64,000 nt of DNA from Candidatus Omnitrophota bacterium (GCA_030698625.1 JAUYMS010000042.1:92150-156149), one strand, 5' to 3'. Positions 34,023 through 64,000 are shown, numbered from the stretch's first letter. Translations and numbers: made by a program. Notes: a model not told the origin generated them from the sequence alone.

Positions 34023-35879
34023 CTAAGTCAGAGTCGTAATCCCGCGCCCCGCCCGCTCATGCCCGGCGTCGATTGCCAGGGATTTCTCATAGGCATTCCG
34101 GGCCTGGTCCATTTTTCCTTCCTTAACGAGGATATCCCCCAGAACCGCCCAGGCATCCGGTTGCTCAGTGTGAATGCGAAGGATCTCTTCGGCTAATGAC
34201 TTCGCCTCGTCCATATCGCCTTTCTGAAAAGCGAACTCCATGAGGCGGGCTCGGGGTAAAGGGTTCTTATCAAAAGCCGCCGCGGCGTTGCGATAAAAGT
34301 TCAGAGCCTCATCCGTTCTGCCCTTTTCATGCATCAGGGCCCCCAAATTATAAAGTGCTGTACTGATCTCGGCCTTCTTGTAAAGGGGCATCGGAAAGGG
34401 CGAAAAAACACCTGCGGCAAAGACAGCCGCGACACAACCGAATACCAGCATGCCGCGCATATCCTGCCGGCGTATCATTTGAGCCGCACGTACGCTTGCA
34501 TGAGCCGCCAGAATGATGAGCGGCAATACAACGGGAAGCCGGTAGCGCGCCAGAACAAAAAAAGGCAGCGTAATGACCAGCACACCCAGCACCAACCAAT
34601 GCAGGAGTCTAGCGCGAGGATCTCTCCACGTCAGGACCAGGCCGACCAAACCGAGTACCGCAATCCACCCAAATCGCACGGGTAACCACTTCAGCACAGA
34701 CGAGAACCGCTGATAAAAATAATAACTCTCCGTATCCGGTACTTCGTAAGCATTCCAAAAGAGATGGAGTTTGCGCAGTTCCAGCCAAAAAAAGCGGCCC
34801 GGATTCTGTAAGACAAAGTCAATGGCTTTGCCCGCCCAGTACTGTGAAACCTCTGAAGGCTTGAGAGACCGGCCGACCGCCTGCTCGGCAAGTTGGCGAT
34901 TGTAGCGCGCTTCCGTTGTGAGATTGGCCTGTTTGTTATAGAGCGGCTTATAGGTGCCGTCGGCCTCGGGATTATTTCCTATATAGAGGTTCATGCCGCC
35001 CTGGGAGGAGACCATAACGACATCCCCACTCACCTGATAGTTACGAAGAGTTACCGGCACAAGTGCCGCTGCCGCACCCAACCCGAAAAACACAACGGCT
35101 ATCAATCGATTCCGGCGCTCCCGGGCAGGCCCCGTCCAAACCAGCCACAGCAATGCGAACGGCGCAAGCAGGATCAAGTTCGCGATAATCAGCGTCGCGA
35201 TCATCAGCAGCAGGCCCGCCAGAAAAGATGCCCACCAGCTGACTTTTTCCGACTGCCTCGCGATGAGCCACAGAAATACGGCCAAAAGAAAGATCTCTAA
35301 CGTCGGCTTAATTAAGAATCCCGCATAGCAAACGAGAATACCGTAGCCCGCAGCAAAAAGGCCCGTAACAATCGCCGTCGCTCTTCCGAATAAATGATAC
35401 GCCGTCATGTACAGGACAAGGCATGTCAATGCCCCAAGAACCTGCTGAGCCACTTGAGCCGCTTGAATGCTTACACCGAAAATTGAAAATAGCGCGCCTA
35501 AAAAGTAGGGGTACCCAGGGGCTTGAAAGAATGCCTCCGTGCCCAGCCAATTCCCCGATGCCAGGTCGGCCGCCCATTTGATGTAGCCCTGGGCATCGAC
35601 AGTGGGAATATTCAAATACGGGAAGGCATTAATCTGAAAGTGATACGCGAGACGAACGGTGAGCGCGATAAGAAACAGAACCGCTAGGTCGAAAAGGATC
35701 CACTTCAGCGGCGGTGCAGCGGGACGCCCCTTTTCCGGCGACGACTGAGGCCCTGTCTCCAAGTCCCGGATAGCAGCGGCGACCTTCTTTTTGCTTATCC
35801 CAAGGTTCTTGGCGATCGCTTTTGCCGATTCGGAACGGTACCGGCGGCCGATATAACGCAGTGCATCTTCGTTCAGCAT
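34023..35879 (-). CDS. Polytopic membrane GT-C-like (GT39/ArnT/PMT-like) protein with C-terminal TPR repeats.
   Basis: 618 aa with at least 10 TM helices, then TPR-like repeats (ALYNLGALMHEKGRTDEALNFYRNAAA...). It lies directly downstream of, and co-oriented with, the giant gene and the small TM protein. Confidence 0.6.
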   Translation of the reverse strand: MLNEDALRYIGRRYRSESAKAIAKNLGISKKKVAAAIRDLETGPQSSPEKGRPAAPPLKWILFDLAVLFLIALTVRLAYHFQINAFPYLNIPTVDAQGYIKWAADLASGNWLGTEAFFQAPGYPYFLGALFSIFGVSIQAAQVAQQVLGALTCLVLYMTAYHLFGRATAIVTGLFAAGYGILVCYAGFLIKPTLEIFLLAVFLWLIARQSEKVSWWASFLAGLLLMIATLIIANLILLAPFALLWLVWTGPARERRNRLIAVVFFGLGAAAALVPVTLRNYQVSGDVVMVSSQGGMNLYIGNNPEADGTYKPLYNKQANLTTEARYNRQLAEQAVGRSLKPSEVSQYWAGKAIDFVLQNPGRFFWLELRKLHLFWNAYEVPDTESYYFYQRFSSVLKWLPVRFGWIAVLGLVGLVLTWRDPRARLLHWLVLGVLVITLPFFVLARYRLPVVLPLIILAAHASVRAAQMIRRQDMRGMLVFGCVAAVFAAGVFSPFPMPLYKKAEISTALYNLGALMHEKGRTDEALNFYRNAAAAFDKNPLPRARLMEFAFQKGDMDEAKSLAEEILRIHTEQPDAWAVLGDILVKEGKMDQARNAYEKSLAIDAGHERAGRGITTLT

Positions 35880-36139: not shown

Positions 36140-39100
36140 TTACGCACTTATGTCGATGAGCTCTTCGCGGATTAGACTCTCCTCGATGTACTTGCCGAGG
36201 TCGACAAGGTACGCGTCACCCTTAGATCTGGCATTGGGGAAGATGTCTTCAATGTGCTGGTCCAGCAGAGCCGCTTGCTCAAGCGGGTCTTTAACGCCGC
36301 GAATAAGTTTGGCAGGTTCGAGAAGGGCTACCGCCAGAAAAGCCAAGCCCTCGAAGTCACCGCGATCGGCGGCCTGCGGATCCACAATAAAATTGGCGGC
36401 CGTCCCGATATTTTCAGGCAGCACATTTCTATCCGAAAGAAGCGTGGCCACACCCGCTTCGCTTTCGCCCACATAAGAAGCCACATGTTCAACCGCGACA
36501 ACATTGACGAGCGTATTCAACCGCGGTAGCGTGAAAAGATCGCCCGCATCCTGTTCCTCCTGCCAGTGAATCCCGTTATCACGCTTCAAAAATGCCCGTT
36601 TCAAGACGCGTTCCAGAATATCGTCGCTCCCCAGAATTCCCACCAGGGGTTTCGCCCCCGGATGCTGCTTCTCGAATTGATCCAAGGCCCGGAAAAGCAG
36701 GTACAGTGTTCGCGGACTCTTCTCAATAAGCCGTTCAATCCAAACCGAGTCGATAAGGACCTGGCCCATGTCGGCGACCTGCTGCTGCATTTTCTCGTTG
36801 AAGCGCGGCGTCATGACCACGCGGCCTTGACCCAGTTTTGTGAGGATCGTGCTTTCGGTCGTTTGCGGCATAATTCCGGCACGCTCCGAGTAAACAGCAC
36901 GATTCAGGAGCCCCGACAACAGGGTCACCAGAGCTTCGGTAGAATGCTCTTCCAGTCTTCTCGGCAGAATCTGCGCGCGCGGCCCATGAAAGATCCGTTC
37001 GCCTTGAGCCGTGAGAAGTTCGTCTGCAACTCTCAATTCCGAGCGCTCGGAACCGTCAGGGATCTCGCCTTGCCCTAAGAGCTGCTCTAGAACCGGTTCA
37101 TAATCCCGCCTGCCGACGTCAATGAAATCCCGCGCAATGGCTACTCCCACTTCAAAATCGAATTTTTCGAATACTCTGATACCTGCGTCCAGAACCCTGG
37201 ACCGCTTATTGAAATTTTCGCGCCAGATGCCTGATAAGCCCTTTCTCAGATCACGATCCAGCTTTTCCCAGAATTTTTCGATCACGTCGCCATCGATGTC
37301 CACAGCACGCGGGTTGATAGAGTTCATGACAACGCGTCCCGTGTAATCGATCAGGAAGTCACGCGAGGGCAGATAAAGTCCCGGCTGAACATCGGCTACA
37401 TCGTATTCGATCCCCGCCCTTAAATAAATGTCGTTAGCGTTCACCCAAAACTCGGTAGGGATATCCGACATAGAAACGGTTCCTGCTGACCGCACTTTTA
37501 GTGTTTTCTGCTCGGGCAGCCACCAGTCAATGCCCCCTTCAAAATCGTCCCGCAGCTTAAATTCAGGGCTTAAAACTACAACATCCACATCTTTGTGTCT
37601 GAGCAGGTCCTTCGCCTGGACCCGTTGATTCCATAAGTCGGGCGCTATGCTGCCGATCACGATGCCGACGGCCCCCCGCTCTTTAAGAATACGATCCGCC
37701 GTTTGCAGAGCCCGTAATCCTTTCGCGGCATTGGGAGGAACAGGATCTTCCTCTTCCATTTTCTGAATCTGCAGTTGGAGAGTTTTCATGAGCTGCTTCT
37801 GAGCATAAGTCGGCTTCTGTGCCTGAATCATCATCTGGCTCATTGACCGTAGTTCGGAGCGGTAAGGGTCGTCGTCGAAATCGAATTCCTCGGCAGCATG
37901 TTCGTCGGCCCGGCGCTGCAGATAAGGATGAGCGAACTGCTGACCCGAATGCTTAATGAAAATGGGCGGCACCAATTCTGAAAACTGTGCCGCGCCGACC
38001 GGCATACCTTCAGGGGCTCCGTTCATGACGGAATACGGGAGGCCCAAATCAATGGCCTCAAGCAACAGATACCTGGAAAGGTTCTCCCCCATATTGAAGC
38101 CGCGCATAAATCTCCATGAGAGCATTCCGCCGGGCGCAACAGTGCTCATCAGGCGGCGGACGCTTTCCGTCCTGAGATCGACCCCATCGGTAGCGTTAAG
38201 AAAGACAAGGTCGAACGGTTCCTCTCCGAGCTGACCGGTCTCAATGACCTCTTCGATCCTGCCCGGCACGGTCTCAATGCCGTAGGCATCCAGTTTAAGG
38301 CGGTTCTCAAAATCAAAGCCCGAATTATTCCCGACGAGCTCGAACTCAAAGGTTCCGTCGGCCTCCAGCAATGCCTTAAGCCTAATCAAGAACTCTCCCT
38401 TCCCCGTAGCCACATCCAATATGCGGAGTTTTTTCTTATCCGCAAATTCGCTTTTCAGGATGTCGATGAACGCGGGAACTTGTGTTTCCGCCTGGACGGG
38501 TTTGCGGTACTCTTCAGACAGGAGATGGGAAAATCTTGTGAGGCGCTGAACACTATCACGCAAAGCTTCCGCATCGAGATCGAATCCTTGATCGGCGACA
38601 TGGTCCAGCATGGCCTCAAACCCCCTGCCACCAAAGGACTGTAATGCCTCCATCACGGCGATATCGAGTTCGGCTTTGGCACGAAGCTCCGGATTCGTCC
38701 TCAGCGTAAAGATCGTATATGGGTTGCCGTTTCTAAAGCTGAGCTCCGGAGAGGAATTCGGCCCCCCCGAACTCGCTCGTACATAGGCGATTCTTTTTTC
38801 AAAATCATTCTCCGGATAAGATTCGACCAAATTAAATTCATCGATCGAGATCTTGCCGCCCAATCCGTAGATTTTGGCAAATTCTGTCAGCTGACTGCCG
38901 GTTCCGTCGCTTTCACCGACGGAACTAACCATGATCAGCCCCTTCCGGTTAAGCAGAGAGCGGAGCATGAGAATCGGCCACTCGTCCGGATCAAGAGGCA
39001 GGGGCTCATAACTGAATGTCCAGTCGACATCGCCCTTTGCAACGGGTTCCTTAAGAGGGTCCCCGACACGAAATCTCGCGGACAAATCTTCTCCCGCGGC

Positions 39101-42100
39101 AAAGTTAAAATTTCCCGCTCGATTGTCACGAACCCATTCAACGATCCCCGGATTGATATCCGTATAGACAACGTCGGCCCCGCGGCGGCTGAGCTCCGCG
39201 GCCCAGTCGCCGAGATAACCGGCGATTGTAAGAACCTTGTCCCCCTCCTTGATGCCCAACGTGTCGAGCAACGTCTCATCGTCCGGCACCGTCGATTGAT
39301 GCGGGTTGCTGCCGAGCAAGTGTTCATGGAAAGTCCCGATGTTACGTTCCGCGAGCATCTTCTTAATGTCAGGAACGACATAGTCTGATCGCAGCTCGGA
39401 CCGCTCGGAATCGTCAGGGGTCTCGCCGCTCGGTTCCTGCCTTTTCTTTACTTCGCTTTCAGGCACGAGCTCCTCTGTCGTATCGTCAAAAACCAGTTCC
39501 TCAAATTCTTCGACAACTTCGTGCTCTACCGCAGGTGCCGGTTCCCTTGAATCAGCCTTTTCAATTTCGGTTGTCGGTAAGAATGCCTTTGTGCTCTTCG
39601 CGGTCTTCTTCTTCTTTTTCTTGGACTTAGGCTTTGGCCGCTCCGTCTGCACATTACCCGTAAAACTTGTTCCACCCTTCCAGACAACGCCTTCAAATAG
39701 CGGCGGGTATTTCAGGACCTGCGCAATAATGCCCCATGTCTCAGGCGATGGGATGGCCCCTTTTTCCCATTGCGCCACGGTTGGCCCCATTTCCTTAATG
39801 CGTTCTTCATCTTGTATAGGAACACCATGTCTGTCGGTAAAGACAAAGCCGGCTTCTCGGAGCGTATAAACCATATCGAGCTGCGTCATTCCGAGGCGAA
39901 CTCTCAGATCATAGATCCTTTCCGATAACGGAAGGTCGCGGAGCGCTTCATCGAGGTCCTCGATTCCCGTAATAAACGCGATCGGGTCCACGAGCAGCGC
40001 CTCGCCCAGCTTTAAGACAGTGCCCGATTTTGTGGGCAAGGCGTCGCGACGCTCCACCGGAGAATAAGTGTTGCTCGGTATGCCAGCCGCACTCGCGGTT
40101 TCTCCCTTCTTCTTTCCCCGCGCCTCCCGAATCAGTTCTATTCTTTTGCCGATAATCATTCCCGGTTCCTGCATGGTTTCACTGAGGCCCTCCGGCAAGG
40201 GTTGCGGTTTATAAGGAAGCGGCATGACAATAAACCTCTCCCATAGCGCCCTCAGAATCTCTGCGGCAAGTTTTCCAACTCCGGTGTCGGTACGTGCATG
40301 TTGAGGAAGGTCCTCGGTGATAACGAATCTGACACGTGCGATATTGGCAAGCGTAGGTTCGAATTCAGAAAGTCCCGCGACAATGATCTTGAGCGTTGCA
40401 ATACGCTGAGCATCGAACGCTTTGGCGAGTGAGTCTAGGAGCCCTCTCGTCTCCGGCCAAAAGGCCTCTTCAATAAGCGCTTGTGCCGAATCCGGCAAGG
40501 CCTCTCTGAGGTTGGCAAGCAGTCCTGAAAACTCGTCGGGGTCATTAGCCGCTATGGCTCGTTTCAGGGCACCCGGCCAATCCTCGGCCCGAAGCTCAGA
40601 ACGCTCTCGAATGATTTTTTTTGCATAAATTTCGGCTGCGTCCACAAGTGCAGACAGAAAGAGTCCATCCGCGAGATCGAGCCCTCGCGCCACAAAGAAA
40701 TCCACAAAGACCTTAGGCACCCCCCTATCTATAAGGTCTTTTGGCTGCGGAGCAACAAGCTCACTTTCCGAACCGATAAATTCCGAGCCTCTATAGAAGC
40801 GCATCAGCCTGCCGATTAGCTTCTTGGAGAACCGCTTTTCATGCGTCAGGTAGTGCGCAAGGGCTTCAGCTTCGCGCAGGTTTGCGGCGTCGGAATACAT
40901 GAGCTTCGCCTGAGAAGTATCGGGAAGAAAACCAAAGCTATGAACGGACTTCTTTGCCCGTTCGATGCGTCGCGGCGCCTTGAGATCAATGCTTGAACCC
41001 TCTCTATGTAAGCGGCCGTAATAGGCTTCATCAAAATCGAGTAGTTGCTTCTTGGCCTTGGCTTCCCGAATGGATTCCTCAAAACGTTGAAAAAGGATTT
41101 CTTCCTCCAAATACTCCAACGTTTCTCCAAGATTGTCCTCATCCACGATGCGGAAGAGCTGCATATCTTTTGGCGCTATGAATTGCAATCCGTCTTCGCG
41201 GCGGAGCAGCCGTGTCTCAAACTCCTTAAGGTAAGGCTCCCAAAATGAACGCCCGACTAGGAGAATCGGCCGCTTGGTCACTTTAGCCGTCTGCATGAGT
41301 TGAACGATGTCGAAAAGCCGGTTGAAAGTCCCCACCGCACCCGGCAGAAAGACATACGCGTAAGCATTGTAGGTCATCAAAAGTTGATGGTTGGATTCGT
41401 CATCGACAATAATGTGCCGATCGCCGAAAAATTCTTTGTCCGCAGCTAAAAATTCTCTCAATTGGTGATTCTCGGAGGCATCGTGCAGGACAGCTTGAAA
41501 CTTGTCAGACCAGCCTTGTTGCTTGGAGCGGTCCCTCAGACGATTATAGAGACGGCCCGTACTGGCACCCCGTATGAATACTTCGTCGAGCTCGGAAACA
41601 TAACTAGCAATCTTTTCCGCGATATTCAGTTTTCCATTTTCCCGATGAGGCCGGCCCGCCATCATCACAACCCGCTTCTGCCGGCTTAAGGTTTGAAGAC
41701 CTTGCTTGATCTCTTCATTGATCTTTTCGACCTCGCGCTGCGTGGTCCGATGAGGCGGATTCGTTTTTGCTTCCGCCAAAATAAAATTAACCGCCTCTTC
41801 GGGGTCGTCCGTAATCAGCGGAGGATCGGACCGGTAACCCAGCTGCTCGGAGATACCTTCTCTTTCGATCGTCGCAAAGAATTCGTCCATGAGCGGCTGC
41901 CAAAAATCCTTCCCGAGAAGGGCCACGGGACGCCGGCGACGCCAAAATTCGAAGAGTTCATCATGGGTCCCAACTCCGCCGGGAAGAAAGATGGACCCCA
42001 GGATATTTTCATGCAGGGCGATCTTGCGAGTCACAAAGCGTTCATAGCTCTTTACGATTTGGGTGTAAGGATTCGTGGTCTGTTCCCAGGGCAGAAGAAT

Positions 42101-45100
42101 ACGAATCCCCTGTGTCGGCAAGGTCCTGTACTTGACGTAAAGAATAAGCGCCGGAATCAAGAGGACAAACAACGTTGCCGGAATAAGGCTTGGGACCATC
42201 CATCCGAAGACGGAAATAAAAGACGGGCTCAGAATAAATAGGACGATCCCGGTCATCACATTAAATAAGCTGGTAAAGAATAGAGTCATTTCATAAAGCT
42301 TCTTGGCTTGCAGATAGCCGAGCATCGGTGCTTCCATCTCGCCCGGCCCCGCGCCTGTGCGCGGCGGTATCCCTTTTTTGTAGAGCATCTTCCCCAGTTT
42401 TACCCCAAGCTTGTAGTACGGATGATCCGGCGGTACCCTCGCGCCTCCGAGCACCGCAATAGCCGGTGTCCACTTATTGACTACCTCGAGGATAGTCTCT
42501 CGCTCCGGGATAACATCTTCGATAAGTGCCCGCAGGGATCGAAGCCGGTAGACGGGCCCATCATAGCCATCACTAAGATCCGATAAATCGGGGCTCCGAA
42601 GCTCCGAGCGAACAAGGCTCGCAAACTCGATTAACTGCGAAACCCAGTCGGGTCCGAGCTCCGCCTCAAGCCACTCGGCGGTACGGGGCAGCGCCTGGGG
42701 TACGGTCTCTAAGCCTCGCATCAGCGTAAACGTTTCCGATGCGGCACCTGGTTTATAAACAAAGGCATCCAGAAAATTGCCGAAGTCCGCCATCCGGGCC
42801 ATCCGGTTCAAAGCCTTAAAATTCTTGGCAACATAAACCCATTTCATGGGGATTTCTATGCCCGAACTTTCGATATGGAAAATGATGGCGGATAAGCTCC
42901 CGCCGATATCCTTCCTGCGATAGCGGTTGATAATCTCGTGTTTCAGCGTCGCCGCCTTGGCCGGCTGCTCGCCGCCGAGGAGATGGGTAATCACCTGATT
43001 GTATGCCGCATCCGAATTCTCGAGAAGCGGGTTCAAAATGACCGAGCGGATAAGTTCGCGATCAATATCGTCAAGGACCTGCAGGTTTTTCCGATCGAGG
43101 TAGGCGATCCAATCCCCTTCCATCTGCAGGAACTGACCCGGGTGAATATCGGAGTGAACGATACCCGTTTCAAAAAGCTGGTAAAAGAAGTTTTGCACCA
43201 GCACGGATACAACCCCTTTGGCCGAGGCCTGGTCTGCGGCTGTCACAGTTGTCTCTCCTTTTGATACTTTGGTCAGGAACTCATTAAACGAGGTTCCGTG
43301 CACGAATTTTTCCCGCCGCAAAAGCGCGGTATGAGTTTCCTGCACTCCGGGGACGAACAGTTTCTGAGGCAGGCCGTTGGCCGGACGAAACTTATCTGCT
43401 CTCTGAGAATCATGGTGTGTCTGCGCCGAGAACTCTTTGTTCTTCGCATGATAATCAGGATCATCGATTTCAGACTCGACACGCGTTTTGGCCTTATCGA
43501 GAAGGATCTTCAGAAACTCATAGAACTTGACCTCCTCGGCGCCTCTCTTTTTGCCGCGTTTGATGAGCCCGTCCAGGAGTTGATGCCCGAACTGGTGGAG
43601 TTCACCGGCGCGATACGCGGCATTCGGGTTCGTAATCCCGTCCGCCCATTCGTTGCCGTCTTCATCGACATTTCGAAACACGGTCACGATGGAACCGCCG
43701 CCCACGTATTCTCCCCATTCCATAATCCCTTTGAATAGAGGCGCATACTTGGGGTTCTTCTTCGCTTCTTCTTCGAGTATCATGTAGGCCTGCAGTTTAT
43801 TCATACCGCGCACGGCATCGAAGACATCGGCGATCTTTTCTTGATCATCATTCGAAAGTTCGAAATACATCCCGGCAAGCTGCAAGAGCGTAACCGCAAG
43901 GGACCCGGCGTGTTTAGACACCTCGACGGCGAGTTCGATCGGACTCACTTTTTCGCTGAAAGACTTGCGTTCCGTGACGAGATTCATATCCGCCATCTTC
44001 TCCATGGCGGCGTCCTCAAAGTGCACATAGGGAACGTCCCGGGGGAAAAAGACATTGAGCCCGACACCGTCTTCGGTTCGTCTGAGCTGTCCGCGCACTC
44101 CCGTAATAAAGGTTCGAATGCGGGTACGGATAAGGCGGTGGGTTTCCGGAAATTGGGCTTCGTCGGCAATATGCTCAAACCCCTTGGTTTCCAGATGCTT
44201 GACATAATCCCGAAACAGCATGTCTTCGATTCCGTCATTGGGATAGCGGTCCTTCGGAACCTGCAGCGAGACCTGTGAGAGTGCCGGACCCAGGAAATAA
44301 AAGATGTCCTGTGCATCCATGTCCGTGGCGATGGTCTCGGTAATGTCGTTGGCCACCTGCCGGGCCTTCTTCGCTTTGCCGACCTCCACATACTGGTTGA
44401 TGAAGTGCTGCACTAGGGAGCGCTTTGCCTTCTTGGAATAAAGGAGTGCGTTTTCGCCGTCCAGCATAATGGAACGAATCATGAGGTAGATCACGACCGT
44501 GTCCAACCGGTAGAGCGCCGGGTAAAATTCATCGAAGAAGATCATGCTCAGGTAGCGAATGTCGCGGATCATGTCGGCCGCCTCGAAATTTGCGCTGTCC
44601 AAGCGTGACGCATTTTCTTCCGCCTCTTCTTGCTCTTTCGAATCGGCCCTGCCTAAGGTCGGTGTACGGGCTTTTAATTCCCCGTAGTAAGCGAGATGAG
44701 CAACGCTCTCGATATTGCTCAATTCCATGGTCTCACTGGTGAAGGCCCGCCACCATTTGCGGGCCATATATTTCTTAAAGCCTTCGTCACTCTGGCGCGT
44801 GGAGATGGCCTCTAAAAAGAAAGGAAGGCGATCTCCCGGTTTGATAAACCGCACGAGCGTGTGGGCAATTTCGAGAAGCATCACATCACTGCCGGTCTCC
44901 AAAAGACGGTCTACCTGTTCCCAAAACCATTTCTTCATGACTTCCATGTCTTCATGGGACTTGGTTTTCTCCTCGGATAAGACATAAAGCCCTTCACGCA
45001 AGATGGTGCGCGGCAGATAGCTGTACTTTTGCAGGTAGGCAGCGGCCTCGTCGAAGTCCTTGGAACGCTTGATCATCTCCCGGAAGGCAATCGTCGCCAG

Positions 45101-48100
45101 GCTCATCGCCGAAAAGCTCTCCTGAGAGAGCAACGACACGGCCAGGAGGCCCTCGAAGTCTTCCGGCGTCTGGGGATAGTCTTTTTTCTGCCGCAGTTGT
45201 GCCATAAGGCTCGTGGAAATCCGGCGCCAATCCTTTTCGTATTCCAGCCGGGGCATGTTGACAAAGGCAATGCCCCATTGGTTGACCACGCGGATGGCCT
45301 CGACAAGCATAGCCTCCGTTTCCCCCTGCTCCGACAGGTGAGCCATGCGGCTCAGCGTCTTCTGCTTAACGCCTTTCAAAACTGAGCTGAGCCGCGAGCG
45401 CTCTTCAAGACCGATTGTCCAAGATTCTCCGATTTGGGCCCGATTTCTTCTTGCGATGGCGTCCTCGAGCCAAGCCATCAACTCGTCGACTTGGTTTAAG
45501 ACCCCCGTTTTTTCGGTCGACAGCCTGCGATTCAGCGTCGATACAAACTCGCGGCGAAAGGGCTGCCTGAAGAGATCAAGCAAAATAACCTTCTTCATTT
45601 CCGGCATGTAAAACTGGCGCCATTTGTCGTTTTTCCTAGCGGAGAATCGAATGGACCAATGGTTTTTAGCCTCCAGATACCCATAAAGAAACTCTGAGAG
45701 TTCTCTCATTCTTTTTTCCCGGTCCGTCGTCGGATCTAAGCTCCCATACCAATCAAGCAACGCCTGCCGCAGATCATCGGCACTCATGGCGTTGACCTCT
45801 TCCATGATCTTCTCAAAGCGGCTGGAAAATTCGGTCGTTGCCTCTTGCGCAAACAGTCCCCAATCAAACGTCACACCGCCCTGACCGGGACGGCGCCTTG
45901 AGCGTTCACGGAGCTGCGCCATTCTTTCACCCGCATCACCGGCAAGCCGCGTCACATTAGCGCCCAGAGCAAGAATCATGTCCGCTCTCTCCATGACCGT
46001 AAGCTCTCTGCGGTCCAACTGCGAGACCATGTGCTGCGTCGTCGCATTCATGAGAATGCGCATATTGGAGCGAAGCTTTTGCACTTCCTTGTCGTCCACT
46101 TCGTAGTTGATTTGGGCCGACATAATTTTGCGGACATCAAGACTTATCAAAATGCGCTCCATGAATCGTTCGGCATCAATTAAGTTCACACTCATTTCGG
46201 TCATGAAAGTCTTAATCTCATTTGTATCTACGGCGTCAAACGGGATCTCGTCCTGGAACATAACCATCCGCTCAATCTTCGGGGTGTCCGACCACCGTGT
46301 CATGACTTCGACATCGCCGATTTGATAAGCGGCCTTCCCGTGAATCAGCTGCGTCCGCACATAAACACCCATCAGGCGGGTATCCCACGAAATAAGGAAC
46401 TCCCGGGCATCGCCGAAGCGCTGCTCATAGGCCTCCGCGGCCTTCTGGCGCAGCTTTGCGAGAGCCGGGAATGCCTCCTTGAACTCTTCGTATTTTTTTC
46501 CGTCCATGGCGGAACGCATCGCCTGCTCGCTTAAGCCAAGCAATTCCTCCGGAGCGAGCGGCAACCCTATGCGTTCAAAGATCCGGGCTTCCATCATCCT
46601 CGCAACGCGCTCCGGAGTAAAATATTCGACGAATTCTTCGCGGGTTACTTCGTAGACCTCGTCATCGCCGGGAAACAGGAACCCTTCCGAGCGATGCAGG
46701 ACAATGTCATGCAGCATCAACAGCAGCACGTTCTCACCCTCCTCATCAAATCCCAGGTTCTGGTTGCGCAGAAATGTCAGCACCGCCTCTGTCCATTGAT
46801 CACGGGACAAGTGCCGCACCAAATGTCCAAACTGGTTCCAGAACCGCGCCGGCTCAGCCTTCACAAGATCTTCCACAAATCCTTCGGGAATTTCGCTGGG
46901 GATCGTATCGTCGATCCGGAGGGCATCCCAATCAATGGGATGAACATCATGGCTCAATTTGTCTAGATGAATGAAGCGGACGAACTCGCGCAGGTTGGAG
47001 TAGCGCATCTCCATGGAACCGTGCACCGGATCAAGACCGACAGCTCCTGTCGGCATAGCCTCGTCACCTTTTGCTTGCTCTTCTGCACTTTTCTGTGCAA
47101 CGCGCGCACTCCATTTTCGTTTGAACGTAAGCGCCCCGATCGGATTCACTCCCCTCTGATTGAGCTCCCACAACATCGCCAAGTCGGCTTCAAATTCATT
47201 AAGCCTCCAGATACCGAAGCCATAAATGTCAAAGGGGTCGAGATCCCCGCGTTTAAACCTATGCGACCTCTCGATGTGCCTGAGTTCATGCATGAGAACA
47301 GCCAACACTTCCTCCTCGGTATCAAGAATCTTTAACATGCCCGTCGTGATATAGATCTGACCGGCAGCGGAGGCAAAGGCGTTCTCCTCTTTGTCATCGA
47401 TAACGGCAACACGTGCCTCGTGCGTACGGATAAGCCGCTGCAACAACCCGTTGAGGAATACGCTCGTTGGATGGTTTTCCATGAGAATATTCTTCTCAAA
47501 AAGGGTCCGTTGGACGGCGATCGACTGCGCCTCAAAAAAGCGGTCACGGAAAGTCACGGCACGAAGTTCCGAGCGCTGTCCGGTTTCGACGCGCCGTAGC
47601 TCTTCGAGTTGTTCGCGTAGCCCTTCCTCTAAGCGGCGGAAGCGGTGCGGCCCCCGTGCTCCGAGCAGTGCCAGCGCCCGGCGATTGTCGAAAACCGGCG
47701 GATTCATCACCTTTGAGGGCGGGTCTACTGATAGGCGGCTCGTTTCTTCTTCTGAGAGTACGCGCAACATCTTCACCGCCCGCAACACATCTGCCGGGGC
47801 ATAGTTGTAACCGCTGGCAATATTAATGATGTCGTGTTCGCCTCGAATAATTTTTGGGAGCTGAGAAATTTCTTCCAGAACCGCCACTGCATCCGACAAA
47901 TGCACGTAATCTCTTGTATACCCGGCAAAACGCCCTTGATACCCCTTAAAAATCGGGCGAATCGCTTCCGGAATAGGATGGTTCGAAGACGTATCTTTCT
48001 TGCCGAAGAAGCTGGTGGGTCTCACAATAACAACGTTGTCACGCTTTTCGAGCAGCCGCTCACCTATCATCTTTGCGAGTTTGTAAGGATAAACTTCAGC

Positions 48101-54100: not shown

Positions 54101-57100
54101 TCCCTCAATGTCGCCCATGGGGAAAAAGACGATGCCGTCGAGGTTCAACTCATCCATGACACGAAGCGCAAAAGCAACGTGTCCCCAGTGCGTGGGGTCA
54201 AAGGTACCGCCAAAGACGCCCAGATGAACCTGCGATTGTGGCTTGGAAGCCGACATGGCCTGCCCCTCGTGAACGCGAAGAGTCGCATAGGGCTGAATCA
54301 CCCCGTCACGAATTTTTTGTTCGATTGATTTCAGATTCGCGATGATCTGCCGCTTTGTCGCCAGAAACCTTTCGGTAAGCGCCTCATCATCGACGGCATC
54401 AAGCTCCTCTTCAGTGGGAAAAGCCGCTTGAATCATACCGAGGGAAGGCATGCCCTCGAGCGGCAGTGTCTCATCCAAGGAAATTGTTTTCTCGATAATC
54501 GGATCCCCGATGGCCTCGAAGGCGCGGCGGGCTGCGTGCCGGATTCTGGCAACAGGATGATCGTAATACACGGTCAGCGTATAGAGTACATCGGGACTTA
54601 CCTCTAACATGCGTATCGGATCCGAATATTCAGCCAATGTCTCCATCGCCTCAACCACGAGAGCGATCTGATCGTCGCGCAAATCACGCTTCGAGAGGTG
54701 ATTTAGATACCGCGCCGCCGTACGGATGTGAAGGGTGTCTCTGTTTTCTACCGTATCCAACGGGGCGCTGAGACGATCGAAGGCCTTCTGCGCCGCCATG
54801 CGGACATCTACGGAGCGTTCGGTCTTCGAAACATAGTCCGCCCAACGGATCAAGACAACATAGATATCAGGATTGATTTCCAGGAGCGGCTCGGGACTTT
54901 CGAATTTCGCCAAAGCCTCCAGAATGCTGACAGCGAGATCCTCTTCCTTCGGCGTCAGCCTTTCACTCTGATAGGCCCTTAGAAAGTTTGTGATGACGTG
55001 AACGGACTCGACGATAGCATCATCCAGCTGTGTTTGAGCAAATCGCGCCGGATCTGCATTTAAATTGTGGACCGCCAAAACACCCGCTGCACGGAAATCT
55101 GCTTTTGATAATTCACCCAATGCATAATCGCGCATTACTTTATCGTCACCGAAAGTAACGCGCGTCAGGAATTCAACGGCTGCACCGCTTCGTTGCTCAC
55201 GCATAGCACGCAATGCCGCGTGTACCAGCCCGTCGTCTTCAGTGAAATCAATCGCTTTGACCAGAAAATCAAAAACCTGAGGCGTTCGCACTTCTCCCAA
55301 TTCCCGAAGAGCACGGATGAGAAGCCCACGGTTCACCGTAGGATCTTCCTGATAGAGAAGTCTTTCGATAATCGTAAAGTCATCCAAGCGTGCAAGTGCC
55401 TTGAGGATCGCATACTGCACGATAGGATCCGCCTCCGGTTCTTCATAGACCAGCTTCAGCTTGCTGATCATTCGGTTCCGGTTTTCCTCATCGAGGTCTG
55501 CCCCCAAATTCCCCAGGGCCTCCACGACGACCCTGCGCACGGGAATGCGGCCCCGCTCCACCAGGACACGCTCAAAGAGGCTGTTGACGAGCGCAATGCG
55601 TTCATCTCTTGTTAACCCCTTGAAGTGCCCGCTCAAGAGTACCGCCTCTCGCGCAAGCTCGGGGACTTCCATACGCAAACCGAGCATGGTGAGCATGTAC
55701 CTCAGGAACGGATGAATCGTAATCGCCGTATCCTCACCGCCGTATCCCTCTGAAGCCATACGCAGATGCTTGATAAAGCGCACGCGATTATGCACGTGCC
55801 TCGGATGCGTTGTGGCCTGTAGGCTTTCGGGCGGTAGATGCCCGTCGGGATATAGTTCCGGGTAAGCAGTGGCAATCTTCAGCATCTGACGGACAATAGG
55901 TTCGAGAACGCCTTCGTGCATCGAGTCGTCGTATTCGATGCCTGCGAGGCGACGAAAAATCATAAAAGCATATAAGCTCTGCTCTCCGTACAATTCCTTT
56001 GGCAACACATCCTCGTCGGAAAGGAGAACGTTGAGCTCTTCGATCATCTCCACGATTTCCCTCTTCTTACGAAGCTCTTCGGATTGCAGATTGGTTTCAG
56101 GGGAAATCGCCACCTCTGAGAGTTCGCGGCGGGTCGGCATTGCGATGCCGACAATCTCTCTGCCGTGCTGTTCTAAGAATGCCGACATCGTCCTGGCGCG
56201 GGGATCCACACTTAGCGCTAATTCCTTGCGGACAAGTTCAAAGGTCTGCTTTAAGTGAGTTGCATACTCCTCGCGACCGTAGCGCATGGCGCGGACGAGT
56301 TCTCCGAGCTGCTTGTCGAAGCGCGCAAAGGCCTTGCCGTCGAGCACGGAACGAAAATCACGCATCAATTCGCTGGAAAGGCCGCTTACCTTAAAAATAC
56401 GGCGCGTGAGTCCCTCGCGAAGATCAATGACGCGCTCCACGCGGGACGCCTCATCGCGTAAGCGCCAAAATGCGATACGAATGTCGTTGGCGACAGCATA
56501 AGGTGAGCGTGCCAATACGGAACCAAAACTCACGGAAATTTGCTTCGCACCTAGCTCCGCCGTCCGTTCGCGAACCGTCTCACGCCCGCGCTCGTCATAC
56601 TCACGCACCTTGTTCTCCGAGTGGATCGCGAGAAGCCTCTTTTCATCGTAAACTCGCACCTCATCCAGCACCGGAACGAAAAGGTAGTTTGGGATCACCG
56701 TTTTTGCCAGGAGATCGGGGAAGTCTTCGGTGGTCGTTTTCATCAGAAGCGCCGTCGGATGCTGGCCGGTCGGGCCCGACTCGCCGACACGTACGGGCCT
56801 CAAATTCGTCCACTTATCGCGGCCGAAATTCGGAAGGACAAAATTTAATCTCGCGTCGGGATAAATAATATGGCGCGCACTATCGCCCACCGTGCGCACA
56901 TTAATTTCCCTCGTCAACTGTGCGCGCAAGTAGGACAACCTGTTATCCGCGTTATCGTAGTAGTTCCTAAGCACATTTTTCATGAAGACCTTGCTCAAGG
57001 GTTGCTTTGTCAAGGTCTTCAGCGAAATCCGGCCCGTCGAAGGTATCGCAAGCGTTTCCGTCGCGCCGCCCTTGGACATAAGAATGACGTGGTCGCTGTT

Positions 57101-60100
57101 GTGGCGGTAGCCGATAAAGAGAACGTTTCGCAAATCAGGGCTGACCATGGTGCGTACGAAAAAGTCGCCGTCAGCGATGTGTTGGTTCAGGAATTGAACT
57201 TTTCCGGAAAGGTGAGCTCCAAAATTGAAGTAGATATTCGGGCCAACCTGCCGCCGGCCCAAATTAACCTGTATGACGCGCGCCTGAGACGGTGCCATAG
57301 GAGCGGTCAATCCCGCTAGGATCTCCTGCGATGTCCGGTACAGCAACCGGTGGTCCGCTAAAAGATCCCTCTGCCATTCGACTCTTAACTCAGAGCGCTG
57401 CGACCCATCAGAAATCTCAATCGGGGACGGCCCACGGGCCTGGAACAAAGATGTAGACGGCAGGATGACGGTTCGGGATGGTTCGAAAACGTCGGTCAGA
57501 CGTGACTGCGCGACGGGCAGATGCGGTGCGGGCGATGAACCGTATGGCACATAAGGCGCAAAATGCAGGACTTCTTCCTCGCCTTCGGCTGCGCTGCCTT
57601 TCAGAGTCCGGCCCGTGAAAATAAATAGTTGCGCGGCATCGCGGTCGGGGGCCCTGACATCTATGACAGTGCCCGGTTCGAGTCGGGCGAGCATGGCCTC
57701 AGCCGAGGTCGGGTGCGAATCGGGCCGCGGAGCGAAACGACTGTAGATGCGGAATGCCTGCCGGTCGAGTACTTCGTCCACAGTGAGAGCGCCGGCCCGG
57801 TCCATTTCACGGCGGGCTCTGCGCAAATACCTTAAATCACTGATGGTACGCGCCAAGTCATGCAGGTGTGCGGAAAGCGCTTCCGCGTATTCGGCGGGAG
57901 CAAAGGATTCCTCCGGTTTGAGATAGACGGCATCATCGCTAAGTTTCAAATCATAGGCCTCGAAGAGCCGGCGAAGGCGGTCGGTATGCTGTCCAAGATT
58001 TTCGGACAGAACACGAGGGGGAGCGATGCGGCTAAGAAAGGGCCAAGTCCGGGACCAAGCCCAGGAAGGTCCGGATTTAAGGAAGGCCCGTTCGTGAACC
58101 GCCACAAATGTTTCAGCACCTAGGAGCGCCTCAAATGCGGCAGTCCAATATTTCCGGCGCAGTGTCACAACACGCGGCTTGAAGAATCGCGACTCTGCTG
58201 ACAGCGTCCAGACTCTCGGCGGCTTTTTTCCGAATCGCCCGGCACCGGCCGGGACGTACACATAATATTTCGCCAGCCCTTCCTGCAGCGCGCGCCTTGC
58301 CCAGTCGACTTCCGTCCAGGTCGCAAGCGGTCCCCGCAGGGCCAAGTCAATGCCCCCCTGCGTACCGACTCCGACCAAGACTTCGACCGGCCTGCCTTTT
58401 TGGTCGCGTAGACGGCGAAGATGTTCTCTCAACTCGTTGTAGTCGGTGACCGCCACGGCCGCGGGTTCGGCGCTGCGTGGCTCAAACGTTATGCCGTTGA
58501 TAGTTGCGCCGGTCAGACCCTCGGCGATCTGTTCTACGGTTTCCTCAAACACCTCTTCGGCCTCCCTGCCCCGGGGATCAATCGGCCTTCCCAGATGAAT
58601 TCTCAGGGAAAGCGGCGAAAGTCTGGAAAAAAGTTGGCTGAAAAATTCACCGCGTTTTTCCCGCAACACTTTGCTGCGCTTGTCGAGTTCATGCCGGTCT
58701 TCACCGGCCGCCCTGCCTTTCTTCGCCTTTATCTTATACTTCCTCTTCGCGAGCACGTACCTTGCCCGAGCGGCACGCCACCTGGCAAAGAAAGTAACGA
58801 TACGAGTCTCGCCTGAAATTTGGGTCGGAATCACAAACCGTCCTTCGTTTACGGCAATGCGCGCGAATGTCCCGTGCCAGTCGCGCTTCCATTCGTCGAT
58901 CATGGCACCGGGTTGTATCTCGGCGCGACCCAAAGGAAAGAAGGCCAGACTTTCTCCCGCGCGAACCGCGGCTTGAACTTTGTCAAAGGTTCCGCTCGGC
59001 CCGGCAACTGCCTCCTGGAGCTGTTTGCCCGAGAGGCTTTCGGCCCTGAGCAACAAGAGGATGTCCCTCATCGCCCGTTCAGCCCCATTGCCCAGCAGCG
59101 TCATTGTCAGGGCATCGCCGGGCAGGATTCCGGCTTCTCGGATCATGTCGGGCTTACGCAAGTCGTACACCTGCGATCCCGCATGCAGGGACGCGATAAA
59201 GTGCGGTTTTTGGGGATAATCTTTGAGGATGGCTGCGACCTGATCTGCAGGAAACTCGAGGCCCGCCACCCCTTCCCACCGGACATTTTCGTCCACTTCA
59301 ATGGCCAGTCCTTTGCGGATCAAGACCTGCTGAAGTTTCCCTACTTCCGAGGGCCGGGCAACAAAAAGCGGCAGCCGCCCCGTGCGCAGGTAGAGTTCCG
59401 TGACCAGAACAAGGCCGTCCAGCGTGCTGATGTGGTTGGCGGCGATAATATAATTGTCGCCCTCAGGCAAATTTTCAATGCCTGTAAGCCGGACAAAGTA
59501 CCGGACAAAAATGCGGTAGAACCGCAGCCACCACTTGGCCGGAGCAGGATAGTCTTTAAAGGCCTTGATCGGTGCAACCCTTAGCGGTGGTTCCGCAACC
59601 GGTTTGTCGGGCAAGAGCTCGTCCTGCTGTTCGGTTCTTAACTCAGAGCGCTCGGGCATTGTTCCGGCGGTTTTGTGGTAAAGTTCCAGATTATTCCGAA
59701 GGGTGCGGTCTTTAGAGAAATTGGCGATTACATGGTTACGCATAATGCGCGAGTTGAATTGCCCGGCCTCAGCCCGAGACAACACATTTTTTATTCCCAT
59801 AGCAACATCAAAATCTCTGCGGTCGGCATTGACGAGCATGCCGAGATCAGAAATCGGAAAAGGCCGTTCGGCGTAGCGCGGATCAAACGAAGCACGAATA
59901 CCGGGAATGTCGGTCGCGATCACGGGCTTGCCCATCGCCCAGGCTTCAAGGATCACACGTGTCAGCACCTCGTCTTCCGACATATGGATGAGCGCGTCCG
60001 CGAAACCATAGAGCTGAGGCAATTTGGTCTGCGGTACAAACCCGAGGAAAATCACTTTGTCCCGGAGCGCTTCCGGCAGGCGCCGGATCCGGGCCCGGAC

Positions 60101-63100
60101 CTTACGTTGATATTTCCCGCCACCCGCCCCCGCCAGGACCAGGTAGGTATCCCGCCCCGCGGTCCGGGCATAGGTCTCAAACCCGTCGATTGTCTCGACA
60201 ACGCCCTTCCCCTCGACCATGCGGCCTACATAGAGCAGGACATCCGATTTCGGGCGATCGATTTCCAGGAGGGCTTTCGGCAGTTTTTGCGCCCCGGCGA
60301 GCTTGTCCGGGTCGAAGAATTCCGTGTCCACTCCGTGCGGAATGACAATAATTTTCTCATCGGGCAATCCGTATAAAGCCTTTGCCTTTTCGGCGTGATC
60401 CGGTGTAATCGCGACGAAGTAGTCGGCAAGTCCCACGGCTTTTCTGAAGACATGTTTAACGTGCTCGGGAAAATCTTCGTCAAAAATAATCTCCATGTTG
60501 TGACCGTGGATGCCAAAGAAGATCTTCTTTTCTTCCGACTTATTGTTGATCTCCTCTGCCACGGACGCAGCGGCCAAAGCAAGAACACCCCCGTGATGCG
60601 CATTTAAGACAATCTTCTTATCGGGCGAACGTTCGAGGATGGCGGCAACACGTTCTCTGACGACTTTAACAGCGGCCAAAGCGTAAGCCTCTAACTGTTC
60701 TTCACTCATATCTTTGAAGGCCACGGTCTTCGGCATCGTAGGGTGGGCGTCGAAAAGCGGCACCTCGTCGAGTTCGATCAGAGACACATCAAAGGGAAAC
60801 TCTTCCGGCTTCGTACCCTTGAGCGCTGTCGAAACAACCGCGCTTTCGATTCCGTTCTCGGCATACCACTCCGGCACCGTGGTGACATAGGTCATCGTGC
60901 CGGAACCGCCGGCACGGCTCGGCAGGTAAATAGAGATGTCTACAAGGGCGAGATCTTCACGGGCACTGTTAATCAGTTCACGCAGAGGTAACTCCGGTTC
61001 GTCGGCAGGCAGCGCCTCTACTACCGGTTTCGCAGCCGCTTTGACCTCAACCCGGTAAAGTGGTAGCTCCACCCACCTATCCGAAGAAGGCCTGATGTAA
61101 TCAATCGGTCCATACCAACCGCTCCCCGCTATCCAGACAAGGGTCCCGTTAGAAGACCCCCGTTGATGGGTCCCTATGTCGCCGATCAAGAGTTTGTGCC
61201 CGACAATTCTTACGGCCGCATGATCCCGCGAGACATCGCCTTGATACATGACGATATCGCGGTCCGTGTAGCGGCCCACAGTCACCCTGGCCGATTCCTG
61301 CTCTTCACGATAGCCAACATGCAGGGCCGGGTCGGCGGGAAATTTCCCAACATAATGGCGGGTCCCTTCATCTTCGACAATTTCAACCTCACCGCTTTCC
61401 AATTCCTGAACCGTTAGAGCAACACTTGAAAGCTTAAACCGCCCTTCGCGCACAACCGAACTGCGCTCCTGAATTCTGGGATTTGCAACACGACCCACCA
61501 GAATCTCCGCTTCCTGCAGGTCGTGCTGCTCACGCGCCTGTGCGAACCACCAAGGAACGGCATAACGGCGCTTATGCAACTCAAGACCGGTCGGTGTGAT
61601 GCCTGTGCCCCGGGCAGTATCGCGCAACCTCACGAATTCTCCGTTTGCATTCACGGCAAGATCGAGCTTAAAGACCCAATCTCTGACATCATCCCAACCC
61701 GATGCCGGAACCGTCGCTATGTCTCCGTTCGTAATACGCTTCTGGATTTGCCCCGCCAGCGTTGGATGAAGATCGTCACCGGCCTCGTTCAGAGTCTTGA
61801 CGATCCAGTAAGGATGTCCTCCTCCATCGACCATGAATCCTTCGAGACGCTTCCACTGGCCGGCTTGTCCCTCCTCCGCAATCTGAGAATGGGAAATGCT
61901 CTTATAGGTCATGTAAACTTTCCCTTTGTAACCGATCACCACAAAGTAGCGAACCGCGCGCTTTGCCCCCTGCAATTGCCTGCCGTGCGAATGTCTCTCA
62001 AAAGCCTGCTTAAACATAAGCACTTTATCTTCCTCACCGCGGCGGCCCACCTCGTCTGTGAACGCGTCTAAATCCTCAGCCTCCGAAACCTCCATATCCT
62101 CATCGGTAACCGTCAAGCGCGGCACCGGCAGCTTTTCCTTTTCGAACCGCTTCTCTCCTGTGTGAAGTACCCGGTAGCGACCGATGAAGATATTAAAAAA
62201 TTTAAGATACTCACGGAGTGAGCGGAAACCTTCAATGCGCTTCTGGACAGACTCGTCATTCTCAATCAGGTACAGGAGATTGAAATACCGGGCCATGACC
62301 AGACCGGGGGTTTGCCCATATTCATAAAAGTAGTGCGTGACTGCCAGTTTAAAGTCAGCCAGAAGATCATCATCGAGATACCGTAGGAATTTCCTCGCTC
62401 CGTTATCGAACAGATAGGTTCTCGCCTCCTCAGAAATCGTCTTCCGCGCGTCTTTGATGTCGCGGAGGATATCCCTAGGCTCGAAAAACTTGTCGTCACC
62501 TACCTGAAACCGCAGTTGGGACTTTTCGAACTCATAGAGAATATCCAAATCCCGTTCGCTGCCGAGCAGGCCCTGCAGATAAAAGCGAAAGGCCCGAAAT
62601 AAATTTCTCGAGGCGGCCTGATCGACGAGGCTGCCGTCCGACTCCTCATTGGGGATAATGTTGATACTCTGGCCGAGATCTTCATCCGGCTCCACCTCAA
62701 CCCGAAAGCTGCGGCGATTCTCAGCAATGGGGAAGGCCTTCGCATAGCGGTCGAGTGCCTGTTGAATCTTCACATTCACTTGATCCGGCTCGTCATAGTC
62801 GGAGGGCATCAACTGTGTCACGGTAATGGAGTCATAAACCGACTCGTCAGTCCTGAATACTTTTTCTGCTTCGTCAACTAACAGCTGTTCCCCTCGCGCC
62901 CGAATACGCGCCGCCTTTTCCAACTGTTCGATAAACTCCTCGTCTTCCTCACGCAACAACCGCTGCACCTCTTCCTCGGGCACAAGCTCGCCGTTTTCCT
63001 CATAGCGAATCTTACCCTCGACGTCAACCTCGTATTTGATGCCCTTGTAGAATATTTGCGTATCATCATCCGAGCGCAATTCCGACCGCACTTTGCTGTT

Positions 63101-64000: not shown

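Follow-up and report, generated by a model that had tools for sequence, protein, structure and literature searches.

The giant genes of the Omnitrophota, which reach about 147,000 codons, are a recognised puzzle. Huge bacterial proteins are also known from the MARTX toxins, whose variable, unrelated effector modules are freed by an internal protease that cuts the linkers. In viral polyproteins, one open reading frame (ORF) encodes both the modules and the protease that recognises the separator peptide between them, and RgpA, Kgp and HagA of Porphyromonas gingivalis are secreted polyproteins processed at Arg/Lys into catalytic and adhesin domains. For the Omnitrophota, a class of giant proteins termed 'multi-enzyme metabolic clusters', in which GT1, ROK, methyltransferase and HEAT domains occur, has been described (Nielsen & Lui 2026, bioRxiv 10.64898/2026.06.07.730766). 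Cleavage of Omnitrophota giants has been proposed and C39 or S8 peptidases have been suggested, with 'information about cleavage points' lacking, and whether the giants are single proteins or cut up is an open question in the literature (West-Roberts et al. 2023, 10.1101/2023.11.21.568195). Here we analysed a stretch of 64,000 nucleotides (nt) from a Candidatus Omnitrophota genome (JAUYMS010000042.1:92150-156149, hereafter the window), which contains a minus-strand frame of at least 9,286 codons (the giant ORF) and the first part of a second gene of the same kind (ORF B). We propose, with moderate confidence, that the giant ORF encodes a head–cargo–tail polyprotein that is cut at a repeated pentapeptide, RSELR, into at least 11 proteins, most likely by a TIKI-like head domain.

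Taken alone, the giant ORF belongs to a class already described and is unexceptional within it. It shares the phylum of the metabolic-cluster giants, many Pfam families tile its single frame without any one dominating, and glycosyltransferase (GT) group 1, ROK, methyltransferase, HEAT and Lysine_decarbox domains as well as transmembrane (TM) segments are common to both. Its visible length of at least 9.3 thousand amino acids (kaa), with the frame still open, lies just short of the 10,000-amino-acid (aa) threshold of the catalogue in the 2026 preprint; most head–cargo–tail members found here have 2.5–5 kaa. A preliminary description of the window had presented its fused enzyme set as something not seen described. 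However, Omnitrophota multi-enzyme giants with GT1, ROK, methyltransferase and HEAT domains are already to be found in both earlier studies (10.64898/2026.06.07.730766 and 10.1101/2023.11.21.568195). What is undescribed, as far as we searched, is the rule that links separator, head and tail: text searches of both Omnitrophota preprints gave no mention of the separator motif, a TIKI-like head or a conserved tail, and literature searches on RSELR or on Omnitrophota polyproteins gave nothing relevant.

The giant ORF contains ten exact copies of RSELR, compared with 0.03 expected from its composition (Poisson P ~1.6e-22). Every SELR within it is preceded by R, and single-mismatch variants of RSELR number zero. 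In a six-frame translation of the window the pentapeptide occurs 14 times, always in the reading frames of the giant ORF (ten) and ORF B (four); this genome has at least two genes that share one separator. All ten sites of the giant ORF lie outside Pfam domain envelopes, three of them 13–80 aa beyond the point where the match to an enzyme domain (GT4, ROK or epimerase) ends, and together they divide the ORF into 11 pieces of 272–1,766 aa, the first of which (306 aa) is clipped by the window edge. When the 14 window junctions were aligned over 35 columns, RSELR was the sole invariant part; the flanks are not conserved, but Pro/Ser-Ala tends to precede the motif, and Ala/Ser and then acidic residues tend to follow it. 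Across the ten 15-nt sites of the giant ORF, synonymous codons vary at all five positions: the first Arg is encoded by CGG, CGC or CGT, Ser by TCG, TCT or TCC, Glu by GAA or GAG, Leu by TTG, TTA, CTT, CTG or CTA, and the second Arg by CGC, AGA, CGT, CGG or CGA. Since the codons differ while the peptide is invariant, selection acts on the peptide and not on DNA or RNA. A DNA-level repeat was rejected because the codons differ between sites, and internal translation starts at RSELR were rejected because no Met follows the sites.

A profile of these 14 junctions and 35 columns, searched against 1.84 billion representative proteins at E<=1e-3, returned ten proteins, of which seven are genuine relatives. 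The other three (P0002-P0004) were rejected as class members, being tandem-repeat false positives; P0004 (279 aa) consists of four 53-aa tandem repeats, each with PQRSELRSTGVG, and is apparently unrelated, probably a translated DNA repeat. The seven relatives (P0001 and P0005-P0010) have 2,511–5,132 aa and unrelated cargo, and each carries 5–13 exact copies of RSELR where about 0.01 would be expected, with occasional RSEAR, RSEMR and RAELR variants. Six of the seven start with a signal peptide and a domain of about 500 aa whose homology to the N-terminus of ORF B is clear; Q-x-A-H, [ED]-A-Q, E-G, F-Y...R-D and G-G-F-H are invariant. ORF B itself opens with a Sec signal peptide of the typical kind, and scans with Pfam and NCBIfam gave no match for this ORF. 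We refer to the conserved N-terminal domain as the head.

A scan of a genome collection with a three-sequence head alignment (the seven-sequence alignment being too divergent for that scan) gave 115 head relatives, and our locus-based counts rest on the 80 loci kept from these. The 80 loci are overwhelmingly from Candidatus Omnitrophota metagenome-assembled genomes (MAGs), a few being labelled Planctomycetia, Elusimicrobia, Auribacterota or Eisenbacteria. A word-indexed protein search with the head profile gave eight matches, mostly partial. IMG/VR viral contigs contained no head relatives, and a viral or mobile origin of the class was rejected on that ground. Heads that are about 36–52% identical to that of ORF B are followed by a repeated R-[SA]-E-x-R, whose exact form is specific to the genome: RSELR ten times at locus L032, RSEAR eight times at L008, RSESR nine times at L016 and RSEMR six times at L023, while at three loci of one MAG (JBMONI01) 64 of 70 sites read RAE[LVA]R. 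Past more distant heads (24–30% identity), the repeated pentapeptide is a different one, either [GA][AG][RK]LA, with nine copies at L081 (GAKLA-type) and fourteen in an ORF of L079, or [AG]xSLG, with ten at L055 and eight at L050. The latter type was also seen at L047, and the former at L069, L072, L074 and L077. Position 4 is Leu or another aliphatic residue in all three separator types. In the head ORFs that were translated, the first copy of the separator always stands directly past the head.

The density of R[SA]ExR is 1.48 per 1,000 aa in head ORFs, compared with 0.21 in the other six-frame ORFs of the same loci, and more than half of that background falls in six further long ORFs. These six are evidently either other genes of the class or parts of head ORFs that a frameshift has cut off, and some stand in tandem with the head ORF. 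Measured over 261 sites in 30 proteins, the fraction of hydrophobic residues within about ten residues of the motif is 0.16–0.26, compared with a background of 0.33, and the median internal module has 216 aa. Tandem polyprotein genes were observed at L005 (2-9694 and 9947-19906) and L035 (1-8817 and 9890-21647), where the upstream ORF ends in a tail-like manner (..AQAA, ..STAA) and the head ORF opens about 250–1,070 nt downstream; several MAGs have at least three head copies. Stand-alone heads of 513–551 aa that lack cargo occur at L063 (1692-3344), L065 (9914-11551) and L068 (9977-11515), each directly following an ORF that ends in DVTFQ[IL]GG..[FW] and resembles the C-terminus of an outer-membrane beta-barrel.

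An AlphaFold2 model of the head, computed from seven heads, has a predicted local distance difference test (pLDDT) value of 81.5 and a predicted template modelling (pTM) score of 0.73. In it, the N-terminal ~100 and C-terminal ~50 residues come together in a small alpha/beta core, which is interrupted by a helical insertion of ~320 residues. The core of this predicted model, a parallel beta-sheet flanked by helices, superposes on solved members of the TIKI/Ere/ChaN group. In descending order of match score, the structural matches are two Ere-like 'succinoglycan biosynthesis proteins' (2rad, 10.3, and 2qgm, 9.1), a TraB-family protein (8bqs_DQ, 9.1), the erythromycin esterase EreC (6xcq, 8.9), HopBA1 (5t09, 8.9), ChaN (2g5g, 8.8), PMT (2ebf, 7.5) and RRSP (5w6l, 7.0). 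Foldseek and a profile search of PDB sequences gave no significant match for the head. The same proteins are listed as members of the TIKI superfamily, which has a common beta-sheet core and a 2His/2Glu active site and in which RRSP, like Tiki, is a site-specific endopeptidase (PMC6254334). In the head alignment, H71, E99, R455 and the GGFH at 480-483 do not vary, and position 75 is conserved as [ED] across seven heads; at the level of sequence, H71, E99, R455 and H483 would fit the 2His/2Glu pattern of the superfamily. Compared with the known TIKI, TraB-PrgY, erythromycin-esterase and ChaN proteins, the head differs in having no detectable sequence similarity to them, in its long helical insertion, and in being fused to a signal peptide and a cargo of several kaa.

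The other conserved part, present in some members of the class, is a C-terminal tail of about 260 aa. Residues 9028-9283 of the giant ORF match the tail hidden Markov model (HMM) with E 1.6e-101, a value to be read in the light of the HMM having been built partly from this very tail; independent support comes from P0006 (E 2e-33) and L016 (E 3e-8). An iterated tail profile found the extreme C-terminus of P0006, P0010, L008, L016, L018 and L054. Nearly all complete ORFs of the class, those with other separator types included, end in x-[SA]-A-COOH (ISA, QAA, KSA, RSA, TAA), an ending that may serve at the C-terminus as a signal for recognition or export. At L021, L024, L037, L045, L070 and L079, masked bases (X) or apparent frameshifts split some head ORFs from their motif-rich continuation, and calls of length and of complete ends are unreliable there. 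The ending was inspected in the giant ORF (36143-36157), P0001, P0005-P0010, L008, L009, L016, L018, L022 and L025, and further in L030, L039, L047, L052, L054, L059, L072 and L075.

Between head and tail, the modules vary. When each RSELR-delimited module of the window was compared with all class proteins, conservation was confined to the head (module 0 of ORF B, 86 matches) and the tail of the giant ORF; none of the giant-ORF cargo modules matched a relative at phmmer E<=1e-5, and the tail alone did. Word-indexed homology searches gave no match for the C-terminal 573 aa of the giant ORF, nor for its modules 7–9. The cargo of the relatives includes GNAT acetyltransferases, a HAD hydrolase, methyltransferases, a histidine-kinase ATPase, a protein-kinase fragment, a P-loop kinase and much that is unannotated.

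Based on this architecture, we infer cleavage as well as the identity of the protease, and propose the following scheme, in which (i) RSELR would be the recognition site of a site-specific endopeptidase; (ii) the giant product of translation would be split up into separate proteins, in the manner of viral polyproteins and MARTX toxins; (iii) the protease would most likely be the TIKI-like head, whether in cis or in trans, because no other catalytic-type domain is shared by the whole class and because Tiki and RRSP are site-specific endopeptidases; and (iv) the sugar and lipid enzymes would be part of the variable cargo. The missing N-terminus of the giant ORF is predicted to bear a signal peptide and a head domain. 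A polyprotein with cognate sites is suggested because an invariant short peptide without conserved flanks stands at every module boundary, those between head and cargo and between cargo and tail included, and because this peptide is uniform within a genome and drifts between genomes, a protease-type fold being the sole universal catalytic domain. More tentatively, it is possible that the Omnitrophota express a considerable share of their accessory proteome as Sec-targeted polyproteins, which an N-terminal TIKI-family endopeptidase would cut, as nascent or exported chains, at a genome-specific pentapeptide, freeing from one ORF tens of unrelated proteins, among them enzymes, regulators and membrane proteins.

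The closest mechanistic analogues of the Omnitrophota class would be the MARTX toxins and the viral polyproteins. MARTX toxins likewise hold variable, unrelated modules in a very large protein, and their effector RRSP has the TIKI fold, as is predicted for the head. In contrast, RSELR is a strict pentapeptide where the MARTX site is a loose X-Leu|small, and the cargo of the giant ORF is metabolic and regulatory rather than obviously toxic. The Pfam matches of the giant ORF, ORF B and five relatives included no RTX repeats and no Peptidase_C80 or cysteine protease domain (CPD), and no type I secretion genes were evident among the window neighbours scanned. With the polyproteins of picorna-, poty-, corona- and alphaviruses the class shares one ORF with unrelated modules and a short, strictly conserved, lineage-specific peptide. 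It differs from them in its location on a cellular chromosome without relatives on viral contigs, in the fold of the candidate protease, and in modules that number in the tens and vary between paralogues. RgpA, Kgp and HagA, in contrast, have a small number of modules that are all related in function, lack a strict separator of several residues, and involve a protease of another family.

The strictly conserved, genome-specific separator offers a testable rule by which unreadable mega-ORFs can be parsed into proteins of ordinary size, ready to be annotated and modelled, and the TIKI-like head is a candidate processing enzyme with predicted catalytic residues. Our model predicts that proteomics will find neo-termini at RxExR. 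If correct, it would be one of the few examples of genes expressed as polyproteins in a cellular organism and would add a new biological role for the TIKI/TraB/Ere superfamily. The wider, more tentative reading would be the cell's equivalent of the way in which viruses use polyproteins, and would supply the missing parsing rule for the Omnitrophota 'giant genes' of 10–150 kaa.

Several points weigh against processing by the head. RSELR as a cut site and RSELR as an uncut recognition or hinge motif both fit the present data, which come from sequences, and cleavage is putative. The head of the giant ORF is predicted and not seen, because the N-terminus lies outside the window; scans of genome and metagenome contigs with its first 667 aa gave no extension, nor did an exact 60-mer search of JGI metagenomes. 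The chief difficulty is one of topology: with a Sec signal peptide the head would end up outside the cytoplasm, but a large part of the cargo, such as kinases, S-adenosylmethionine (SAM) methyltransferases, the NadD-like enzyme and helix-turn-helix (HTH) domains, looks cytoplasmic. The TIKI fold is also found in proteins that are not proteases, such as the Ere esterases and the heme-binding ChaN (PMC6254334). In addition, the giant ORF bears an intact-looking M48 peptidase, and unlinked proteases could also cut. A model of the tail from three sequences is poor, with a pLDDT of 50.

An alternative that we take seriously but regard as unlikely is that the giant ORF yields an uncleaved, membrane-anchored multi-enzyme protein, in which RSELR is a hinge or a motif bound by a partner such as a chaperone, a translocon component or a scaffold. 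The 2026 preprint describes proteins of this kind as membrane-anchored single chains rich in TM helices (10.64898/2026.06.07.730766), and the hydrophilic linker around the motif would also suit docking. The genome-specific variants would equally fit co-evolution with a binding partner; however, five residues invariant at 14 of 14 sites, with neither conserved flanks nor near-variants, are typical of polyprotein protease sites. The motif, moreover, parts head from cargo and cargo from tail in every class member, the modules have the sizes of ordinary single proteins, and the sole universally conserved catalytic-type domain belongs to a superfamily with site-specific endopeptidases, all of which argues for cleavage.

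If RSELR is cut, the enzyme could be one other than the head, either the M48 peptidase of module 5 or an unlinked Arg-specific enzyme of the trypsin or gingipain type, with the head serving as an esterase or in export. We consider this improbable. The M48 domain has HELRH and EFEAD motifs and aligns with the solved soluble M48 peptidase 3c37, but it is absent from all five other class members scanned (0/5) and therefore cannot be the general enzyme, a role for which it was rejected. Arg at both ends of the motif would suit an Arg-specific protease, whereas distant lineages keep the head even though their motif contains no Arg ([AG]xSLG) or one ([GA]A[RK]LA). Variants that are specific to the genome and not to the gene would suit an enzyme acting in trans, yet no candidate trans protease was linked in the loci examined; the non-proteases among TIKI-fold proteins also speak for this alternative. 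As a separate observation, the M48 metalloprotease looks intact and opens module 5 directly past a junction, and it is a possible cis protease.

The features of the window are listed in Table 1. The giant ORF has its stop codon at 36140-36142 and no further stop up to base 64000; the ORF listing, which starts from a GTG at 63991, gives 9,283 aa. Because the frame is open at the window edge, the gene is 5'-truncated and its N-terminus lies beyond the window. Over 21,857 nt, which hold the last 3,246 codons of the giant ORF and the downstream genes, the window matches an independent short-read assembly (Logan, SRR13727534) at 100% identity. The multi-enzyme giant ORF of the preliminary description is thus real, as one uninterrupted minus-strand frame that the identical assembly covers in part. 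A search through the gene flanking ORF B gave no extension of ORF B, as the Logan contig stops just past that gene, near the start of ORF B. Five neighbour proteins that were looked up are exact matches to the NCBI MAG 'Candidatus Omnitrophota bacterium' (MDP3920996.1 to MDP3921027.1), which supports the Omnitrophota assignment, as does the almost exclusively Omnitrophota origin of the head relatives.

Table 1. Features of the 64,000-nt window, with giant-ORF residues (aa) counted from the GTG at 63991
Feature	Position	Strand	Basis or remark
Giant ORF	36140..64000	(-)	reading frame; identical Logan contig
RSELR junction 1, aa 302-306	63074..63088	(-)	motif scan
FHA domain, module 1	61136..61285	(-)	PF00498, E 9e-5
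GT4 glycosyltransferase, module 1	59888..60901	(-)	Glyco_transf_4 + Glycos_transf_1, E 1.7e-20
RSELR junction 2, aa 1448, just past GT4 enzyme	59636..59650	(-)	motif scan
PlsC-type acyltransferase motif region, module 2	59288..59494	(-)	PF01553, E 2.9e-7
RSELR junction 3, aa 2199	57383..57397	(-)	motif scan
HEAT repeats, module 3	55127..55321	(-)	Pfam
HxGH nucleotidyltransferase (GGTFDPTHWGH), module 3	53654..54217	(-)	CTP_transf_like, E 5e-8; best matches NadD
ROK/ASKHA kinase-like domain 1, module 3	52142..53089	(-)	Pfam/NCBIfam
RSELR junction 4, aa 3965, 13 aa past end of first ROK-like domain	52085..52099	(-)	motif scan
Two to three hydrophobic TM segments, start of module 4	51542..52015	(-)	hydrophobicity
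ROK domain 2, module 4	48812..49693	(-)	Pfam
NAD-dependent epimerase/dehydratase, module 4	47927..48661	(-)	Pfam/NCBIfam, E 1.7e-21
RSELR junction 5, aa 5473, between epimerase and M48	47561..47575	(-)	motif scan
Peptidase M48, start of module 5, HELRH + EFEAD	47096..47416	(-)	Pfam/NCBIfam
ABC1/UbiB-type atypical kinase, module 5	43010..43540	(-)	Pfam/NCBIfam
RSELR junction 6, aa 7128	42596..42610	(-)	motif scan
Two LOG domains (Lysine_decarbox / TIGR00730), module 6	41141..42433	(-)	Pfam/NCBIfam
RSELR junction 7, aa 7797	40589..40603	(-)	motif scan
Two HTH_3/HTH_31 domains, module 7	39701..40150	(-)	Pfam
RSELR junction 8, aa 8197	39389..39403	(-)	motif scan
Two class-I SAM methyltransferase folds, module 8	38189..39265	(-)	weak, at or just below Pfam cut-offs
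RSELR junction 9, aa 8711	37847..37861	(-)	motif scan
RSELR junction 10, aa 8983, directly ahead of tail module	37031..37045	(-)	motif scan
Conserved C-terminal tail, module 10, ends ...IDISA-COOH	36143..37030	(-)	profile homology
62-aa ORF, two hydrophobic helices	35892..36080	(-)	60 nt downstream of giant ORF
GT-C (PMT_2, GT39) + TPR membrane glycosyltransferase, adjacent gene	34023..35879	(-)	Pfam/NCBIfam
ORF B, second polyprotein gene	1..4194	(-)	ATG at 4194; leaves left edge; at least 1,398 aa
ORF B signal peptide + head domain	2623..4194	(-)	predicted TIKI/Ere/ChaN-like fold
RSELR, ORF B, directly past head	2260..2274	(-)	motif scan
RSELR, ORF B	1441..1455	(-)	motif scan
RSELR, ORF B	979..993	(-)	motif scan
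RSELR, ORF B	187..201	(-)	motif scan

Scans with Pfam and NCBIfam HMMs, supplemented by PDB sequence searches for selected regions, found about 14 distinct domain families along the giant ORF. About three quarters of it had no Pfam match, and the C-terminal ~570 residues had no Pfam or NCBIfam match. All domain scores lie well under the NCBIfam equivalog cut-offs, so the domains are divergent members of their families. From N- to C-terminus the order is FHA, GT4, PlsC, HEAT, HxGH nucleotidyltransferase, ROK, a TM cluster, ROK and NAD epimerase, followed by M48, an ABC1/UbiB kinase, two LOG domains, two HTH domains and two SAM-methyltransferase folds. Hydrophobic TM clusters lie at aa 3993-4150 and 7236-7286. 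The first LOG domain is split by three hydrophobic helices (42134-42286), an unusual insertion for a soluble fold. Domains of polyketide synthases or non-ribosomal peptide synthetases (PP-binding, condensation or ketosynthase, adenylation or acyltransferase) were absent from the Pfam matches of the giant ORF.

The preliminary description had read this domain order as a fused, carrier-free assembly line for an acylated glycolipid or glycoconjugate, working with the downstream GT-C gene. The folds that it named were for the most part recovered (GT4, PlsC, two ROK domains, the HxGH nucleotidyltransferase, the NAD-epimerase, two methyltransferases and the TM segments), and the small TM gene and the GT-C/TPR gene do follow in the same orientation. 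Its GT-A domain, in contrast, was not detected: the candidate region at aa ~4190-4620 shows a DDD motif in the sequence, but has no Pfam match at E<=1 and no PDB sequence match. Its list was also selective, leaving out FHA, HEAT, M48, ABC1/UbiB, the two LOG and two HTH domains and the RSELR periodicity. Single modules could well have sugars or lipids of the envelope as substrates, and a GT4, a PlsC-type acyltransferase, ROK kinases, an NAD epimerase and the GT-C/TPR gene are present as an assembly line would require; we nevertheless hold this reading to be very improbable. The HxGH enzyme had been assigned the sugar-activating step, whereas its top NCBIfam models are those of NadD, nicotinate-nucleotide adenylyltransferase (E 2.9e-13), with no sugar nucleotidyltransferase among them. 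The claim of a complete route from activated sugar to acylated glycoconjugate fails on the many foreign modules, since FHA, HEAT, M48, ABC1, the two LOG and the two HTH domains have no place in such a pathway. Because the cargo modules differ between relatives, in which head and tail alone are conserved, the domain order does not encode a pathway, and the separators argue for autonomous modules. No GT-C homologue was found across the 80 related loci, and a conserved linkage of the giant ORF with the GT-C gene was rejected. The separator finding corrects a tempting but wrong 'assembly line' reading of such ORFs. A feature of DNA or RNA (a cassette recombination scar, an internal start or a recoding signal) or an artefact of assembly or annotation has a negligible probability: modules that look shuffled between relatives do require some recombination mechanism, but the synonymous variation of the 15-nt sites around an invariant peptide effectively refutes this explanation, no Met or start context follows the motif, in-frame domain matches run along the entire 27.8 kb, and the independent assembly is identical.

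About 32 kb of ordinary genes lie between ORF B and the giant ORF, among them genes for an RND pump, a 2-oxoacid:ferredoxin oxidoreductase and histidine kinases. This interval includes a cluster at 23524-28708 with two NAD-epimerase genes, SIR2, Peptidase_Mx, a D-Ala-D-Ala-ligase-like ATP-grasp enzyme and a dTDP-sugar isomerase, as well as two paralogous PAS histidine kinases at 20807-22252 and 28752-30185.

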